Source of the DNA: Actinomycetota bacterium | Lineage (GTDB): Bacteria > Actinomycetota > Aquicultoria > Subteraquimicrobiales > UBA9087 | Length of the DNA stretch: 64,000 nt | Assembly: GCA_030019215.1 (NCBI GenBank) | Contig: JASEEZ010000001.1 | Coordinates: forward strand, 84,211 to 148,210 | Reading direction: 5' to 3' | In this document: one piece after another, positions 8,781 to 47,489 of the stretch | Numbering within the stretch: the stretch's first letter is position 1 | How the letters are laid out: each line of letters begins with the position of its first letter | Translations under genes and position numbers: made by a program | The notes under the pieces: generated by a model | The model's input: only the letters and a program-made list of their open reading frames with translations | What the model was told of the DNA's origin: nothing | Database searches by the model: none

Positions 8781-8916
8781 GGATTCGAGGGGTCGAGGAT
8801 TCAAGTGTCGCATTTTTCTAAGATTTTCACTTGACCCCTTGATCCCTGGAATCCTTGAATCCTAAAGCTCTCTTTACGCTTTACTCACCGTAGTGGTTTT
8901 TACCCACTATTTTTGG
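8781..8916. repeat. Octamer-repeat palindromic element plus adjacent MITE fragment (copy 1; copy 2 at 30188-30429)
   Basis: GGATTCGA/GGGGTCGA units facing CTTGACCC/CTTGATCC/CTGGAATC units, then TAAAGCTCTCTT...TACCCACTATTTTTGG, which supplies the last codons of tilS. Confidence 0.85.
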
Positions 8917-21472: not shown

Positions 21473-21743
21473 GGACTGTTAACAAGTTTGGTTTACACCC
21501 CACCGTTGGTGACGTGAGGACCATGTGTCGAGAAGACCGTGTCGGAGCCCCGCCAGAAAAAGTCCCATAAAACCAGAAGTCCGCGGCGGGGCGAGACCCG
21601 AGCGGCCACGAAGGACTCGTTTCACTCGCCAACGGGGTAAACGGCCGTAACCGCGCTTGCCCCGTAGACGCGACAGCGTTCTTCGGGGTGTTTTCGGAGC
21701 ACTTCACCCCGACCATAGTGTCAACTCATCTTGTCGATAATCC
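21473..21743. mobile_element. MITE family 2, copy A
   Basis: First about 85 nt nearly identical to 37100-37185; imperfect TIR GGACTGTTAACAAG / CTTGTCGATAATCC. Confidence 0.8.
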
Positions 21744-25794: not shown

Positions 25795-25943
25795 TTTGAC
25801 CCCCAAGAGCAACTAGTTGCTCTTGGGTCTTGTCTTGGGTCTTGGGGGTCATGTCTTGGGGGTCAAGTCTTGAATTGTCTTGGGGGTCATCTTGGGGGTC
25901 ATGAATCTCTTCTCTTGTCTTCTCTTGGGGGTCAAGTCTTGAA
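25795..25943. repeat. Scrambled array of RAYT end-sequence fragments
   Basis: Repeated TCTTGGGGGTCA / GTCTTGAATT pieces and palindrome CCCAAGAGCAACTAGTTGCTCTTGGG. Confidence 0.8.
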
Positions 25944-26860
25944 TTATCACTTTTCTGCGCTCGCTCCTCTATCGCTTTATCACTTTGCTAATAGTAGTAT
26001 AGTGTAGGCCTAGAAAGTCAGCAATTTCTTTCAAGGTGTAACCGTATTTCAGAGCAGCTTCGCGGATAATCTGGTTTCTCTGTTGTTTACCGCTTAACTC
26101 TTTCGACCCGAATAGCTTCCCTAGAGACGGTCTGGCAAGATATCTTTGGTTACGGGGAATCTCCTTTATGTTTTCTTTTCCCCAAAGCCTTTCTTTAAGC
26201 TCACCCATGAAGGCCTCGCTTCCCAAAAAGATCTGGCCTTTTACGCTGTCCCATGGGTTCTCCTCTTCAGAGGATAAAACAAATTCACGATATCTCTTCT
26301 GAGCAGTACTTTTCTCCTTTGCGAATTGGGCTAAGATCCAATCAACACTGAGATACTTGGCTGGTTTCCTAAAACCAGCCGTCTCCAAATAGCTACTCCA
26401 TTCATAATCTTCGGGACTCTCGACAAGTCTTGCCCGAACTGGATTAAGAACAATGTATCGAGAAAGAGATAGGAGATGGCTTTCTTTTTCCACCAAAATA
26501 GCTTTGTATCTTCCCTGAAAGACGTGGCCAACCCGATGGTTAACCTTGTTGAAGCGCTGGGTGTAGAGCCCGTTGAGGTGTCTCATCCCCTTAGAGAGGT
26601 TTCCTTCGGGGGTTTCAATTATGAGGTGATAGTGGTTGCCCATCAGACAGTAGGCGTGGCAAAGAAAGTTAAAACATCCAACAGTTAAAGAAAGAATGGT
26701 AAGGAAAAGCCGGCGATCCTCGCTGGAGAGAAAAATATCTTCTCTCGCGTTTCCTCGTGAGGTTATGTGATAGACGGCTCCAGGATACTCAAGGCGTAGT
26801 GGTCTAGCCATTTGAAATAGAGCTTAACAAAGAAAATCTTATATTTCAAGACCTGACCCC
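25928..26860 (-). mobile_element. RAYT element bounded by 16-bp inverted repeats
   Basis: GGGGTCAAGTCTTGAA (25928) and TTCAAGACCTGACCCC (26845), 15/16 complementary. Confidence 0.8.
25969..26811 (-). CDS. REP-associated tyrosine (Y1/HUH) transposase with C-terminal HTH
   Basis: MARPLR..YPGAVYHITSRGN, YCLMGNHYH, FQGRYKA, YIVLNPVRA, WSSY. Confidence 0.93.
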   Translation of the reverse strand: MARPLRLEYPGAVYHITSRGNAREDIFLSSEDRRLFLTILSLTVGCFNFLCHAYCLMGNHYHLIIETPEGNLSKGMRHLNGLYTQRFNKVNHRVGHVFQGRYKAILVEKESHLLSLSRYIVLNPVRARLVESPEDYEWSSYLETAGFRKPAKYLSVDWILAQFAKEKSTAQKRYREFVLSSEEENPWDSVKGQIFLGSEAFMGELKERLWGKENIKEIPRNQRYLARPSLGKLFGSKELSGKQQRNQIIREAALKYGYTLKEIADFLGLHYTTISKVIKR

Positions 26861-26880
26861 TACCAACCAACTGCAAATAC

Positions 26881-29409: not shown

Positions 29410-29937
29410 TCAATAACTGGCGAGTGTCTGTGCGATCATCTCGCCAAACCGTTCGGCGGCTTCCGGACCATTAGCGGTGATAATATTCTCATCCTTCTCG
29501 ACACTATTACCAGTATAGTAAGCGCCACACGAGCCCACTTTCCCCGCCTCCGAGGGCCAGACGGTTACCCTTTTGCCAGCCAAAGCCCCCGCATTGGCCA
29601 GCGTTACCGGAGCAACACAGATCGCCCCCAAAATCTTGTTCTTCTCCATCGCCTGTTGAACAATTGAATGAGCGGTGGGATCGCCCCAAAACTCGGAAGC
29701 TCCCGATCCTCCAATGAAGATGACCGCATCAAAATCGTCCGGGGTCACTTCCTGCAGAAGGACATCTGGTTTTACCTTGAGACCAAACATTCCCGTGGCG
29801 GTTGAAGTCACCGACGAAGCCACGGTTACAGAAGCTCCCTTCCCCGTCAAAATGCTTCGAGGTTTCTGGTACTCCTCATCCCGAAAATTCCTGCTGGCTA
29901 TCACGATCAATACCCGCTTGTCAGATAAATCCACCAT
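29410..29937 (-). CDS. DJ-1/PfpI family protein
   Basis: FRDEE, FDAVIFIGG.G, GAICVAP..LA.AG, IITANGP. Confidence 0.92.
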   Translation of the reverse strand: MVDLSDKRVLIVIASRNFRDEEYQKPRSILTGKGASVTVASSVTSTATGMFGLKVKPDVLLQEVTPDDFDAVIFIGGSGASEFWGDPTAHSIVQQAMEKNKILGAICVAPVTLANAGALAGKRVTVWPSEAGKVGSCGAYYTGNSVEKDENIITANGPEAAERFGEMIAQTLASY

Positions 29938-30187
29938 TGTAACTCACCCCTTCTTATCTTAACTCCATCCCTTCCATGATTCAACTTTAAAAAAATCGCT
30001 ATTTGTAAATTATTTCCTTGATTTCACTGAGAAAGAGGGGTTAAATTAAAGTTGTCCCGAGAAGGAAGGAGAAACTTCGAAAGAAGGCACTTCAACCTAC
30101 TCGGGACATTTCTTTCTTTGGTTCTTCTCCATTTTTAGCGGGTAAACTTTTAATCTTGTTCTTTTCTCAAAAGAGCTACGCATTAAA

Positions 30188-30429
30188 GGGTTCGAGGGGT
30201 CGAGGATTCAAGGATTCGAGTGTTGTATTTTTTAACCCTTCGAATCCCTCAGGGTTACCTTGAGTTTATCGAAAGGTAAGATTTTCACTTGACCCCTTGA
30301 TCCCTGGAATCCCGTATAGGGACGTTGTCCCCACGGGACTTTACGTCCCTGAATCCTAAAGTTCTCTTCGCGCCTTACTACACCGATGGTAGGGTGATTT
30401 CTACCCACTATTTTTGGAGAAGAGCTTTA
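30188..30429. repeat. Octamer-repeat palindromic element plus MITE (copy 2) with two nested insertions
   Basis: Collinear with 8781-8916 apart from extra 41 bp (30236-30276, TAA duplicated) and 36 bp (30313-30348, TCC duplicated). Confidence 0.85.
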
Positions 30430-30446
30430 TTTTTATAGCTTTGGGT

Positions 30447-30474
30447 TCAACCAAATAGCTCAAAATGCCGATAA
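30447..30474 (+). promoter_or_regulatory. sigma28-family promoter
   Basis: TCAA-N16-GCCGATAA. Confidence 0.6.
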
Positions 30475-30643
30475 GATTAATGGAAGGAAATCCGAGAGTT
30501 TTGGCGAAGTAAAAAGTGACCCGAGAATTTGAGCCGACTCCGCCGAGAAGATCTCGGAAAAGTTACCGCAGGCCATTAATCTCGGGTCTTTTTTTGCCGG
30601 CAGTAAATAGCCGCCAGCTATCTGCCATCAGCCATCAGCTAAA

Positions 30644-30720
30644 TGGTGGCGCATGCGGGAGTCGAACCCGCGATCTCCGCCTTGAGAGGGCGGTGTCCTA
30701 GGCCACTAGACGAATGCGCC
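30644..30720 (-). tRNA. tRNA-Glu(CTC)
   Basis: GGCGCAT acceptor stem, CCGCC-CT-CTC-AA-GGCGG, GGTTCGACTCC, CCA. Confidence 0.96.
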
Positions 30721-30752
30721 ACAAAATTTTTGGAACAAAAATTTTGAGTTCT

Positions 30753-31406
30753 CTACTTTTTATTTTCGCCTGAAAGTATCCTTCTTATGGATTCTGCCTT
30801 CTTTCTGCCAACTCCTTCAACGCATTGTAAATCGTCCTCGGAGGCATAGACTACCTTCTCAATGCCGCCAAAATGCGATAGTAAAACTCTAGCGAGTTGA
30901 GGTCCTATTCCGGGAAAGGCCTCTAGAATGTGTACCTGCTGTTCAAGCGTATTCTTTGCCTTTTTCTTGGCGTGTAAGGAAACGTAATGCTTTAGACCCG
31001 ATTGCTCTTGTTTTGCAATTACACGCAGAAAACCTGCAGTATCTGTTGAATCTTTGGTAAAAAGTACGGGAATTCCGCGGACAACTGCAATGAGAGCAAG
31101 TGCGCCTCTAATAGCATCAGGGTGTATCTTTCTTCTACCGTATAGCAAATATCCTTCAATAATAAATAAAGGTTTTTCGTAGCTCTCTTTGAGATCGACA
31201 ATCTGTTTAAATAATCGCTTTTTTATTATAGAGCTCAAAAAATCATCTGCAGTCTTTCTCTCTACAGCGACTCTATCACTCAATATATAATCCCCAACCT
31301 CAAGTTCTTGAACAACCAGGGAAACTCTGCCATTTCTTAAGAGATCAGGGATTCCTGACCGCTCTTCTCCATAATCTGCGTAGATAACAAGCTCTGACTG
31401 GTCCAA
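30753..31406 (-). CDS. XPF/ERCC4 nuclease with C-terminal HhH2 (short archaeal-type)
   Basis: VGDYIL..VAVERKT.DDF, FIIEG, PGIGP and EGVGRKKA HhH; AT-richer than neighbours. Confidence 0.9.
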   Translation of the reverse strand: MDQSELVIYADYGEERSGIPDLLRNGRVSLVVQELEVGDYILSDRVAVERKTADDFLSSIIKKRLFKQIVDLKESYEKPLFIIEGYLLYGRRKIHPDAIRGALALIAVVRGIPVLFTKDSTDTAGFLRVIAKQEQSGLKHYVSLHAKKKAKNTLEQQVHILEAFPGIGPQLARVLLSHFGGIEKVVYASEDDLQCVEGVGRKKAESIRRILSGENKK

Positions 31407-37099: not shown

Positions 37100-37336
37100 G
37101 GACTGTTAGCAAGTTTGGTTTACACCCCACCGTTGGCGAAGTGAGGACCAAGTGTCGAGAAGACCGTGTCAGAGCCCCGCCAATAAAACCCTTGAACCAT
37201 CAAAGGATTCAGCGCGGGGCGAGACCCGAGCGGCGGCTAAGGGATAAGTCTTGATTAAACTATAAATGAGGCCGACCGCGTGTCTTCGAGACATTTGAGT
37301 CCAAACTATGTGTCAACTTATTTTTGTTAATAATCC
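37100..37336. mobile_element. MITE family 2, copy B (between the FMN riboswitch terminator and ribD)
   Basis: See 21473-21743; TIR GGACTGTTAGCAA / TTGTTAATAATCC. Confidence 0.8.
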
Positions 37337-37384: not shown

Positions 37385-37393
37385 CGCCGGTTA

Positions 37394-37548
37394 ACTTTCT
37401 CCCATCCAGACTATACTGTCGGCTCTGGAACTTTCCCAGATCAACCCCCGACACGTCGGGGGCTCGCGGACTTTTCCTCGACTAATTCGGGATTCACCGC
37501 CGGTCAGGAATTCCCCCGATATATCGGGGGTCACCTTGCCCCGAAAGT
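37394..37548 (-). ncRNA. FMN riboswitch with an 18-bp palindrome inserted in the P2 loop
   Basis: TTCGGGGCAAGGTGA[..]AATTCCTGACCGGCGGT..AGTCCGCGAG..GATCTGG..TTCCAGAGCCGACAGTATAGTCTGGATGGGAGAA. Confidence 0.93.
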
Positions 37549-37616
37549 TTCTCTATGCTTTTATGTTGTTTTATTTTAGCAAAATCCCCCAGGCTAAGCA
37601 ACCATACCAAAAGCAG

Positions 37617-38554: not shown

Positions 38555-40021
38555 TCAACTTCGGAGAAGTCGAGCTATAAACATTCCATCGGTTCCATGT
38601 TTGTGGGGAAGAAGTTGAAACCCACCGTCAAAATTTGAATCCTGTGGCATATCCGGGACATCATCCAAGGAAAACTCTGGGTGCCCCTTCAAAAAACCCT
38701 TCACAACCTCGGTAGTTTCCTTCCTAGAGATGGTGCAAACAGAATAGACCAAAACCCCACCGGGCTTGACAAACCCTGCGGCGGACTCCAGTAGTCTCAC
38801 TTGCAAACGAGAAAGTTCCTTGATCTGACCGAGGTTTTTTCGCCACCTGGAGTCAGGGCGTTTGGCCAGAACTCCCAAACCCGAACAGGGGGCATCCACC
38901 AAGATCCTGTCCACCGGCTCTTTGATTACCCCTCCCAAGAGGGTACCATCGGCCTCAACTGTAGCTACAATCTCCACCCCCAGCTGCTTGCAGGTTCTCC
39001 TGAGCAACCTCAAACGCTGAGCATGAATATCCACGGCGATGATCAAACCCTGGTTCCCCATCAATTGGGCAAGGTGGGTGGTCTTTCCCCCGGGAGCAGC
39101 ACACACATCCAGAATCGTCTCACCGGCCTGAGGAGCTACAACTCGGCTCACCAAAATGGAGCTCTCACCTTGAACCGTAAACAAGCCCTGCTTGAACTCG
39201 GGAAGATTCAAAACCGATCTTCCTTCTCTGATGATGAGAGCCTCGGGGATCAGTTCGCTTCGAACAACCTTTAACTTTCTTTTCTCGAGAAGGGGGATTA
39301 GCTTTTCGGGGGATGTTTTTAGGGTGTTCACCCGCACTGAAAGCTTTGGGCGAAGATTATTTGCCTGACACAACTTCTCGGTCTCCTTCAAGCCTAACTC
39401 CTTCACCCACATCTTCACCATCCATCTGGGGTGCGAATACTTCAGCGAGATGAAATCGACGGGATTCTTATTGAAATCGGGCCAGGGGAGTTCGTCTTTC
39501 TTGGTGGCTACCCGTCTCAAAACGGCATTTACGAAATTCGCTATGCGCGGTGGGAAAAACTTCTTGGCCAGCTTCACCGACTCATTGCAGGCTGCATGAG
39601 CGGGGATTCTCTCGGTAAAAATCAATTGGTAGCCACCCATCCTCAGAATGTCCAAAGCCAGCGGGGAAACAGACTCCAAGCCATGAGGCAAAAATCGACC
39701 AATTATCCAATCCAGAGTGCCCTCCGACCTCAGCGTCCCATAGACAATCTCCGTTGCCAAAGCTCGGTCGCGAGCAGAAAGACTGCTCTCACTGAGCATA
39801 TGAGGCAGAAGGATGTTGGCATAGCCCTCCGTTTGATGAACCCTGTGAATTGCCTCCAGAGCCAACTCCCTGGCCGTCCTTTTGGGCTGACTTGTCCCAT
39901 CCCGCCATTGGCGGGGCCCAGTCCTTGCTTGTTCGCGGCCGGCTGGTTGCCTTTTCGCTTTTTGTCCTTTGTCGCTCGCCGTCCGCCGTCCGCCGACCGT
40001 CCTTCGTCTATCCGCCTTCAT
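38555..40021 (-). CDS. rsmB: 16S rRNA m5C967 methyltransferase
   Basis: NusB-like N-domain, DVCAAPGGKT, LVDAPCSG.G, YSVCT, DGMFIA; exact start uncertain. Confidence 0.95.
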   Translation of the reverse strand: MKADRRRTVGGRRTASDKGQKAKRQPAGREQARTGPRQWRDGTSQPKRTARELALEAIHRVHQTEGYANILLPHMLSESSLSARDRALATEIVYGTLRSEGTLDWIIGRFLPHGLESVSPLALDILRMGGYQLIFTERIPAHAACNESVKLAKKFFPPRIANFVNAVLRRVATKKDELPWPDFNKNPVDFISLKYSHPRWMVKMWVKELGLKETEKLCQANNLRPKLSVRVNTLKTSPEKLIPLLEKRKLKVVRSELIPEALIIREGRSVLNLPEFKQGLFTVQGESSILVSRVVAPQAGETILDVCAAPGGKTTHLAQLMGNQGLIIAVDIHAQRLRLLRRTCKQLGVEIVATVEADGTLLGGVIKEPVDRILVDAPCSGLGVLAKRPDSRWRKNLGQIKELSRLQVRLLESAAGFVKPGGVLVYSVCTISRKETTEVVKGFLKGHPEFSLDDVPDMPQDSNFDGGFQLLPHKHGTDGMFIARLLRS

Positions 40022-40089
40022 TTCCCGTCCTTCGCCCCGCTCGCTAGCTTTCATCCTCCACCGGATACCGAGTACATCAACTTCCCAGT

Positions 40090-47271: not shown

Positions 47272-47489
47272 CTCTCATCTCCCAGAAATTCTCTGCAGGA
47301 ATTGGCACCTTGTAAAAACAGTCAATGCCCATCCGCCTAAAGCAGACTGCGAAATCAATCAACCGCTCGCTCAATGGTCAAAAGTCAATTATTTCCCTTT
47401 TGACCAAGCTGGAGGCTGATTAACTCTTGACTGATTTACAGGTTGCCGAGGCTTCATCGGGCCAGTCCCTCCACCTCTCCAGATAAGAG
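47272..47489 (-). ncRNA. SAM-I riboswitch with enlarged P3
   Basis: CTCTTATC..GAGAGGTGGAGGGACTGGCCCGATGAAGCC.CGGCAACC...GGTGCCAATTCC...GATGAGAG upstream of metK. Confidence 0.94.

Follow-up and report, generated by a model that had tools for sequence, protein, structure and literature searches.

Two gene-less hairpins nested in an ISL3-type MITE, and target selection that probably proceeds by triplet pairing

How do two short palindromes come to lie in one copy of a repeated element and not in another, each of them directly behind a copy of its own last three bases? The question is raised by positions 30188–30429 of a 64,000-nt stretch of DNA (hereafter the window) from the genome of an uncultured groundwater bacterium (G000; 1.63 Mb, 94% complete), whose genus-mate is denoted G001. 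A sequence-only reading had proposed that, relative to a shorter copy at 8781–8916, the element gained a double hairpin with a duplicated TAA and a 36-bp element at a pre-existing TCC, and that the triplets inside the inserts are tied to the target. The account which we consider probable, with appreciable room for doubt, is a three-level nest of mobile DNA in which gene-less mobile hairpins select their target by pairing. Its first level would be an ISL3-derived MITE of a 205-bp type, with a hairpin core of tandem 8-nt words; two gene-less palindromic micro-elements would have entered that hairpin in an ancestor copy, and the loaded 307-bp composite would then have transposed into this locus as one unit.

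Two inserts, their host element and its arrival at the locus

Pairwise alignment of 30188–30429 with 8781–8916 separates two clean extra blocks, of 41 nt plus TAA and of 36 nt, as had been described. The first (e41; 30236–30279, + strand) is a 44-nt block, CCCTTCGA..TCGAAAGG plus TAA, which is itself preceded by TAA at 30233–30235. By alignment and fold it is a double hairpin of two inverted half-units, in the order arm A, TTA, arm B, TAA. The second (e36; 30313–30348, + strand) runs CGTATAGG..ACGTCC and follows TCC at 30310–30312. It is a 36-nt hairpin which ends in TCC and holds GGA twice inside (−10.7 kcal/mol, z −3.2, folded as single-strand DNA). In the short copy the corresponding sequence is ..CTAA|GATT.. 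and ..GGAATCC|TTGAATCC.., and the sequences bear out both earlier observations, that TAA is duplicated and that TCC was already target sequence. Contigs of paralogous copies from four public runs lack exactly 44 nt (30233–30276, with 3 ambiguous letters) and exactly 36 nt (30310–30345, with 4 ambiguous letters). The e41 insert occupies an apical loop, and e36 lies at the 3′ foot of the stem.

The host of both inserts is, judged by its ends, an ISL3-type MITE, 307 bp long in its loaded form. The element is larger than first described and extends over 30120–30426 (+ strand), as delimited by inverted ends and by an empty site in related-strain contigs. A genome-wide end search located its terminal inverted repeats of 25 nt each at 30120–30144 and 30402–30426, the left end beginning about 66 nt to the left of 30188. 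Between them, the 5′ arm of the central hairpin (30188–30220) consists of tandem 8-nt words, GGRTTCRA / GGGGTCGA. The TAA of the apical loop (30233–30235), which is single in empty copies, is the target of the 44-nt insert. The 3′ arm of the octamer-word hairpin (30286–30312) ends in the TCC (30310–30312) that is the target of the 36-nt insert, and the next octamer word, CTGAATCC (30349–30356), abuts the hairpin foot in empty copies. All these features are on the + strand, as is the short comparison copy at 8781–8916, a MITE fragment without terminal repeats that is empty at both sites and that folds as single-strand DNA at −17.6 kcal/mol (z −4.3). It sits between tilS and a phosphoribosyltransferase gene, and the last ~11 codons of tilS with its stop codon fall within the tail of the fragment (8881–8916).

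The basic full-length MITE measures 205 bp. Fourteen end pairs were found in the 1.63 Mb of G000; 11 enclose the octamer-word core (205 to 351 bp) and 3 enclose unrelated interiors. Both window loci are members of a genuine repeat family: with a 136-nt query, 52 matches at E ≤ 10 were obtained from the same genome, and 26 loci were examined by eye. The 8-mers flanking the 14 end pairs match at 8/8 positions in two cases, 7/8 in five, 6/8 in two and at most 5/8 in five, against an average of 3.45 matching positions out of 8 for non-cognate flanks. These flanks indicate that the MITE makes a target duplication of about 8 bp; those of the window copy itself match at just 5/8, in T-rich sequence. 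The 25-nt end consensus agrees at 20/25 and 19/25 positions with the two ends of an ISL3 unit in a class-level relative (G008), a unit of ~1.6 kb with a 367-aa PF01610 frame (232 bits). No ISL3 transposase (PF01610) was found in G000, at 94% completeness, or in G001; insertion sequences are often left unassembled in such assemblies. The host MITE is ordinary in kind. Its ISL3-like ends, flank repeats of ~8 bp, lack of a gene and presence or absence between strains are those of ISL3-derived MITEs; it differs from them in that its word-hairpin core serves as a landing pad for other elements. Tandem arrays of a 7-nt word (TCCTTCG and variants) occur elsewhere in the window, at 574–685 and 39958–40034.

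Four public runs (X1–X4) were compared over 29700–30900. The X1 contig (5318 nt) covers 29700–30114 and 30431–30669 with 3 and 2 differences, respectively, and joins 30114 to 30431, skipping 316 nt and carrying one letter instead; its depth of 155, like the absence of a contig across the filled junctions, is uninformative on allele frequencies, all of these records being contigs. The X3 and X4 contigs have a join identical to that of X1, and record 8 of X2 joins 30111 to 30425. The composite is a recent arrival here as one unit, and near-identical strains have the empty site. Because the whole 307-bp element is absent from those strains, the gains arose in the lineage of the element and not at 30120–30426; both micro-inserts were most likely already aboard when it landed.

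Presence and absence between strains also bears on the idea that the locus is a structured small RNA gene with variable extra stems, which we regard as very improbable. The 307 nt, as DNA, fold at −48.8 kcal/mol (z −4.9), and the element has a terminator-like tail, a hairpin followed by a T run, as such a gene might. Its terminal inverted repeats, its 8-bp flank repeats and its copies in both orientations and as fragments argue for mobile DNA instead, and a search of the whole window against Rfam at gathering thresholds gave no match at either locus.

The spacer in which the MITE landed holds a consensus-like promoter and two long hairpins (30000–30112 and 30430–30600), the second of which ends in a T run. 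This spacer unit is conserved without the MITE in two relatives (G003 and G006), although the alignment with them is too diverged to pin down the target duplication of the MITE. In the orthologous spacer of G003 an Rfam search by E-value gave tRNAs only, and in the spacer of the window no family reached gathering score. The spacer split by the MITE may be an unknown small RNA gene.

Insertion polarity and the spread of the two inserts

The alignment of host copies comprises 21 sequences, of which G000 supplied 18 and G001 three. The e41 insert is present in the loop of three (the window copy, G000:C2:36685-37035 and one in G001:C2), and e36 in the slot after GGAATCC of five; a sixth copy has an 18-nt form there, and one G001 copy has a different 41-nt hairpin at the e36 slot. 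Between carriers the inserts are 95–100% alike, and the host copies 72–81%. Pairwise comparison of the three e41 carriers gives 42/44, 43/44 and 43/44 matching positions for the insert, and 163/210, 105/139 and 113/139 for the corresponding backbones; the window and C9 copies agree at 36/36 positions of e36 and at 137/189 of the backbone. Carriers are not grouped by backbone, and in every case the most similar backbone belongs to a copy that lacks the insert. For the long copy it is that of G000:C50:60055-60275, which has neither insert and is 86% identical to it over 209 backbone columns, and not that of the short copy at 8781–8916; one octamer unit and a 7-nt indel in the tail also separate the short copy from the long one.

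These comparisons support insertion rather than deletion. The word ‘gained’ was in this respect well chosen, but the two copies first compared are paralogues, not alleles, and the gains were not made at this locus. Derivation of the short form from a long ancestor by two precise deletions had been named as the case that would overturn the proposal, and the backbone comparison, which is unrooted, disfavours it to the point that we give it hardly any credence. Precise loss of a palindrome is a known event; yet 18 of the 21 copies are without e41 in the loop and 15 without any form of e36 (again in an unrooted comparison), carriers have empty copies as their nearest relatives, divergence is far lower in the inserts than in the backbones, and members of the e41 family occur elsewhere on their own.

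Whether the inserts reached these sites more than once is a separate matter. The bases directly flanking e41 are lineage-specific in the three carriers, and the alignment as a whole favours repeated entry at the same two sites rather than a single inheritance. The host copies are mosaics: the two window copies, ~85% alike overall, share a block identical at 36/36 positions, and short gene-conversion tracts could therefore have moved inserts between copies. Carried to its end, this reasoning denies the inserts any mobility of their own: they would have arisen once and spread by transposition of the loaded MITE and by gene conversion. The whole composite did move as a unit, both inserts recur in the same places in a G001 copy at another locus, and the mosaic block shared with the short copy fits the idea; the e36 carriers, moreover, have mostly homologous slots, with only 2–3 independent contexts. 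We nevertheless hold this account to be improbable, given the lineage-specific flanks of e41, its occurrence in non-MITE contexts, including a 23S rRNA gene that is empty in relatives, and in other phyla, and the presence of e36 in an unrelated contig of 64% GC, all of which we describe below. Independent entry of mobile hairpins is the reading that we retain.

The e41 half-unit can be written as CCYTGAG, 3–7 nt, CGAADGG. This pattern occurs 23 times in G000, against 0–1 times in five shuffles, and outside the MITE its sites include gene junctions and the 23S rRNA gene. Among 30 relatives half-units are common only in the genus of the window, G000 having 20 in this count and G001 14 in 0.8 Mb; other relatives have at most 6 (6 in G005, 5 in G003), and 17 of the 30 have none. 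A degenerate 27-letter pattern, for which our own estimate of the chance expectation is ~0.07 hits, recovered 36 stretches in species-representative genomes. At least seven phylum-level groups are represented: Patescibacteria lineages, Omnitrophota, Binatia and Pseudomonadota, together with one MAG each of Planctomycetia, Vicinamibacterales and Actinomycetota. The family thus occurs independently of the MITE.

A clean filled and empty pair from related genomes, of the kind that had been suggested as a check, was found for the 23S rRNA gene. The 23S copy of e41 (in L128, G000:C17:4900-6300) is an insert of ~46 nt near C17:5583-5630, across which the LSU model matches with 811.6 bits. The site is empty, with a 46-column gap, in G001, G003 and G025, and G006 has a different, GC-rich hairpin of ~41 nt at the same 23S site. 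Across the loci aligned here the same sites are reused, also by unrelated hairpins, with a preference for apical loops or hairpin feet.

The distribution of e36 is narrower. G000 has three full copies and a short form, G001 has two copies, and a 20-mer searched with ≤2 mismatches in 401 sampled genomes of the phylum was found in G000 and at one 2-mismatch site in G378 only. In the metagenome collection the 20-mer matched one contig, of 64% GC, which is identical at 41/41 positions over e36 together with ATCC before it and C after it, and has no other match to G000. In this contig (L085, positions 584–624) e36 lies between a CCTGCC..GGCAGG palindrome and a CCTGAGC..CGAAG-like unit. Nesting also goes one step further in the C51 copy of G000, where another 36-nt hairpin lies within e36.

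Several other repeats were noted in passing. A second hairpin family (GCCTGCC..GGCAGGC) is present at the MITE slot of e36 in L046 (G001:C6) and at the 23S site of e41 in L145 (G006:C31), and no matching triplet flanks it. A SAM riboswitch match in the window (47272–47489, − strand) spans 218 nt for a 108-position model; the loop of one helix is occupied by 119 nt of inverted-repeat words. Two blocks, one of 89 nt (92% identical) and one of 29 nt, are present both at 21473–21614 and at 37100–37242, ~15.6 kb apart; the second copy adjoins an FMN riboswitch at 37390–37552.

Triplet covariation and the choice of target

The full form of an e41-type unit is [X][arm A][X'][arm B][X]. We collected 41 elements, 11 from G000 and 29 foreign, together with an interrupted copy in C2 that was added by eye. 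The regular expression used for this set left only the middle base of the centre and right triplets free to vary, their outer letters being prescribed. Left and right triplets are equal in 34 elements of the set (permutation mean 13.8), and centre and right are reverse complements in 38 (permutation mean 14.6); 0 of 10,000 permutations reach the observed counts. The centre complements the left triplet in 32 of the 41. Four triplet types are represented, namely TCA/TGA, TGA/TCA, TAA/TTA and TTA/TAA. Twelve further units, from the Binatia genome G411, were collected with unconstrained triplets: left equals right in 11, centre and right are complementary in 10, and centre and left in 11, and this set adds a TCG/CGA/TCG type. 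Empty sites hold a single triplet, as seen in the MITE loop (TAA), at a second loop site (TTTTCA|CTTG) and where e41 is nested in e41 (CTCA|GGG), so that element and target overlap by three bases. In the predicted fold the target triplet pairs with the centre of the element and closes one of the two e41 stems.

The mirroring of the target, first noted for the 36-nt element, holds there as far as its sequences go: 6/6 copies, one in the foreign contig among them, follow TCC and 5/6 end in TCC, with GGA present twice inside. The proposed tie between internal triplets and target is borne out family-wide for the 44-nt type and recurs in the 36-nt type. As a sequence pattern, then, each micro-element is directly preceded by a triplet which recurs as the final three bases of the element and is complementary to a triplet inside it. 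No such covariation was found in the parts of PMC3733652, PMC11893778 and PMC3116915 consulted here.

A pattern of this kind might have a conventional origin. The micro-elements could be miniature cut-and-paste transposons, the triplet being a 3-bp target duplication left by the staggered cut of a DDE enzyme with a TNA preference, and the inner complement merely a part of the palindrome. Equality of left and right triplets in 34/41 elements and the single triplet of the empty sites are what such a cut would leave, and the 23S copy has CGA on both flanks, though its centre, TCA, predicts TGA. The centre, however, covaries with the flanks over four types and a fifth (TCG/CGA in G411), which a random TNA target would not bring about. 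The interrupted C2 copy has CAA on its left, as in its empty relative, and TAA on its right, which pairs with its centre; it thereby disagrees with the 23S copy as to whether the end equals the target or a 3-bp duplication is made. No autonomous element with these ends was seen at the loci examined here. We judge this alternative rather unlikely, and continue with selection by pairing as the preferred reading.

Under that reading the micro-elements would integrate on single-stranded, folded DNA, and the landing site would be read by base pairing with the internal triplet of the element. The rule is concrete, in that the target would equal the last three bases of the element and pair with its centre; if true, an exchange of three bases could suffice to give a 44-nt DNA a new address. 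The triplet specificities TCA, TGA, TAA, TTA and TCG exist already, and simple triplet changes would be expected to create new ones. A bolder generalisation, which we put forward tentatively and with more doubt than conviction, is that DNA hairpins of 36–45 nt are minimal mobile elements with an address of their own, carrying a retargetable guide triplet that pairs with the landing site, which is then repeated at the end of the element. They would have crossed phyla and entered riboswitch-like structures, rRNA genes and the hairpin loops of other elements, served by a host enzyme that acts on single-strand DNA. By entering a 23S rRNA gene and the core of another transposon, the elements seen here also shape structured RNAs and other mobile DNA; a MITE, in turn, can carry such passengers along and spread them.

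Known repeat families and candidate enzymes

REP, SRM/NTS and SDR repeats are common, and to our knowledge it is largely unknown how they choose and enter their sites. Judged by sequence features, the present inserts would work like REP/REPIN, SRM/NTS or SDR, and they lack the tag, flanking arrangement and pattern by which the first two are recognised. What is added here is a three-level nest with population evidence, landing sites common to different hairpin families, and a three-way covariation of triplets.

In IS200/IS605 elements such as IS608 the target is read by an internal guide, insertion takes place directly 3′ of a short specific sequence, and hairpins lie at the ends. The micro-elements are alike in that the target lies directly 5′ of the element and is complementary to an internal sequence. 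They differ in that the whole element is 36–44 nt, that a single central triplet would serve both ends, and that the last three bases of the element also repeat the target. The small dispersed repeats (SDR) of cyanobacteria, of which Elhai and colleagues wrote in 2008, are reportedly very small, have two hairpins and are nested in larger repeats and in each other. Size, two hairpins and nesting are shared with the present inserts; lineage and sequences differ.

REP and REPIN sequences are, according to Bertels & Rainey (2011; PMC3116915) and Di Nocera et al. (2013; PMC3733652), gene-less, dispersed imperfect palindromes of 20–45 nt, often in inverted doublets that make up a larger hairpin, and are thought to move as single-stranded hairpins; the REP tag is a conserved GTAG or CGTC which stays unpaired at one end of the repeat (PMC3733652). 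The present inserts are alike in size, in being palindromes and in having no genes, and e41 is an inverted doublet that folds into a hairpin. They differ in lacking such a tag (the first bases of e36 are CGTAT, and e41 is untagged), in their low copy number, and in that no RAYT gene is flanked by them.

The enzyme acting on the micro-elements would be supplied in trans, and one candidate is encoded in the window itself, by a REP-associated tyrosine transposase gene (RAYT-type Y1; 25969–26811, − strand; NCBIfam NF047646), one of six Y1 genes in G000. Neither e41 nor e36 was found within 300-nt flanks of the six genes, and local alignment over 500 nt on each side gave nothing better than shuffles. 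A Y1_Tnp was found in 2 of 5 foreign genomes that carry e41, and none in G411, where e41 is abundant (88 half-units), a further difference from REP/REPIN. A resemblance of the e36 left arm to the ends of the C12 Y1 unit, striking by eye through a shared TAGGG(G)ACGTTGT, does not exceed chance and serves at most as a lead, the score being 13 against a null maximum of 15 and the motif count 14 against 6–14 in shuffles.

The surroundings of the window Y1 gene (the 25820–26880 region) have features of their own. Its product has 280 aa with an HTH-like tail, and the gene adjoins a tRNA gene, is bracketed by inverted ends of the GGGGTCAGGTCTTGAA type (GGGGTCA-type) and is followed by tandem GACCCCCAAGA words, which resemble the octamer words of the MITE core. 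TIRYT units and a GGGGWSAS motif, as given in PMC3733652, resemble these surroundings.

A second group of candidates is suggested by the Ssn GIY-YIG single-strand nucleases with their NTS/SRM hairpin repeats, for which the consulted part of Chenal et al. (2025; PMC11893778) reports cleavage and an effect on transformation, not insertion. Short hairpin repeats over many phyla and a small GIY-YIG gene in the genome are points of likeness. G000 has one such gene, of 85 aa and UPF0213-like (PDB 1zg2, E 4e-8; L122, G000:C1:31828-32085), but, as a point of difference, no e41 unit lies beside it, the nearest half-unit being ~14 kb away. No GIY-YIG frame was found within 400 nt of the foreign e41 loci (0/36), nor any e41 half-unit within ~300 nt of the small GIY-YIG genes (0/10) of five foreign genomes. 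The published SRM pattern gave 9 hits in G000 against 8–15 in shuffles, and none in the composite or at the foreign e41 loci (0/36).

Two further observations concern small genes and the repeats near them. The motif ATGGCAGGCCATTCGAC occurs upstream of small GIY-YIG genes in G000 (L122) and in a Binatia MAG (L160, G411:C76), and has CCATTCGAC in common with the arms of e41-type units. G000 also has five 23S-rRNA-IVS-protein genes (PF05635; L154–L158), at G000:C44:56579, C7:11509, C7:24183, C2:80 and C33:68701. At least three of them (C7:11509, C7:24183 and C33:68701) are flanked on both sides by inverted arrays in which a short word, different at each locus, is repeated in tandem, and the C44 gene has a tandem word array upstream.
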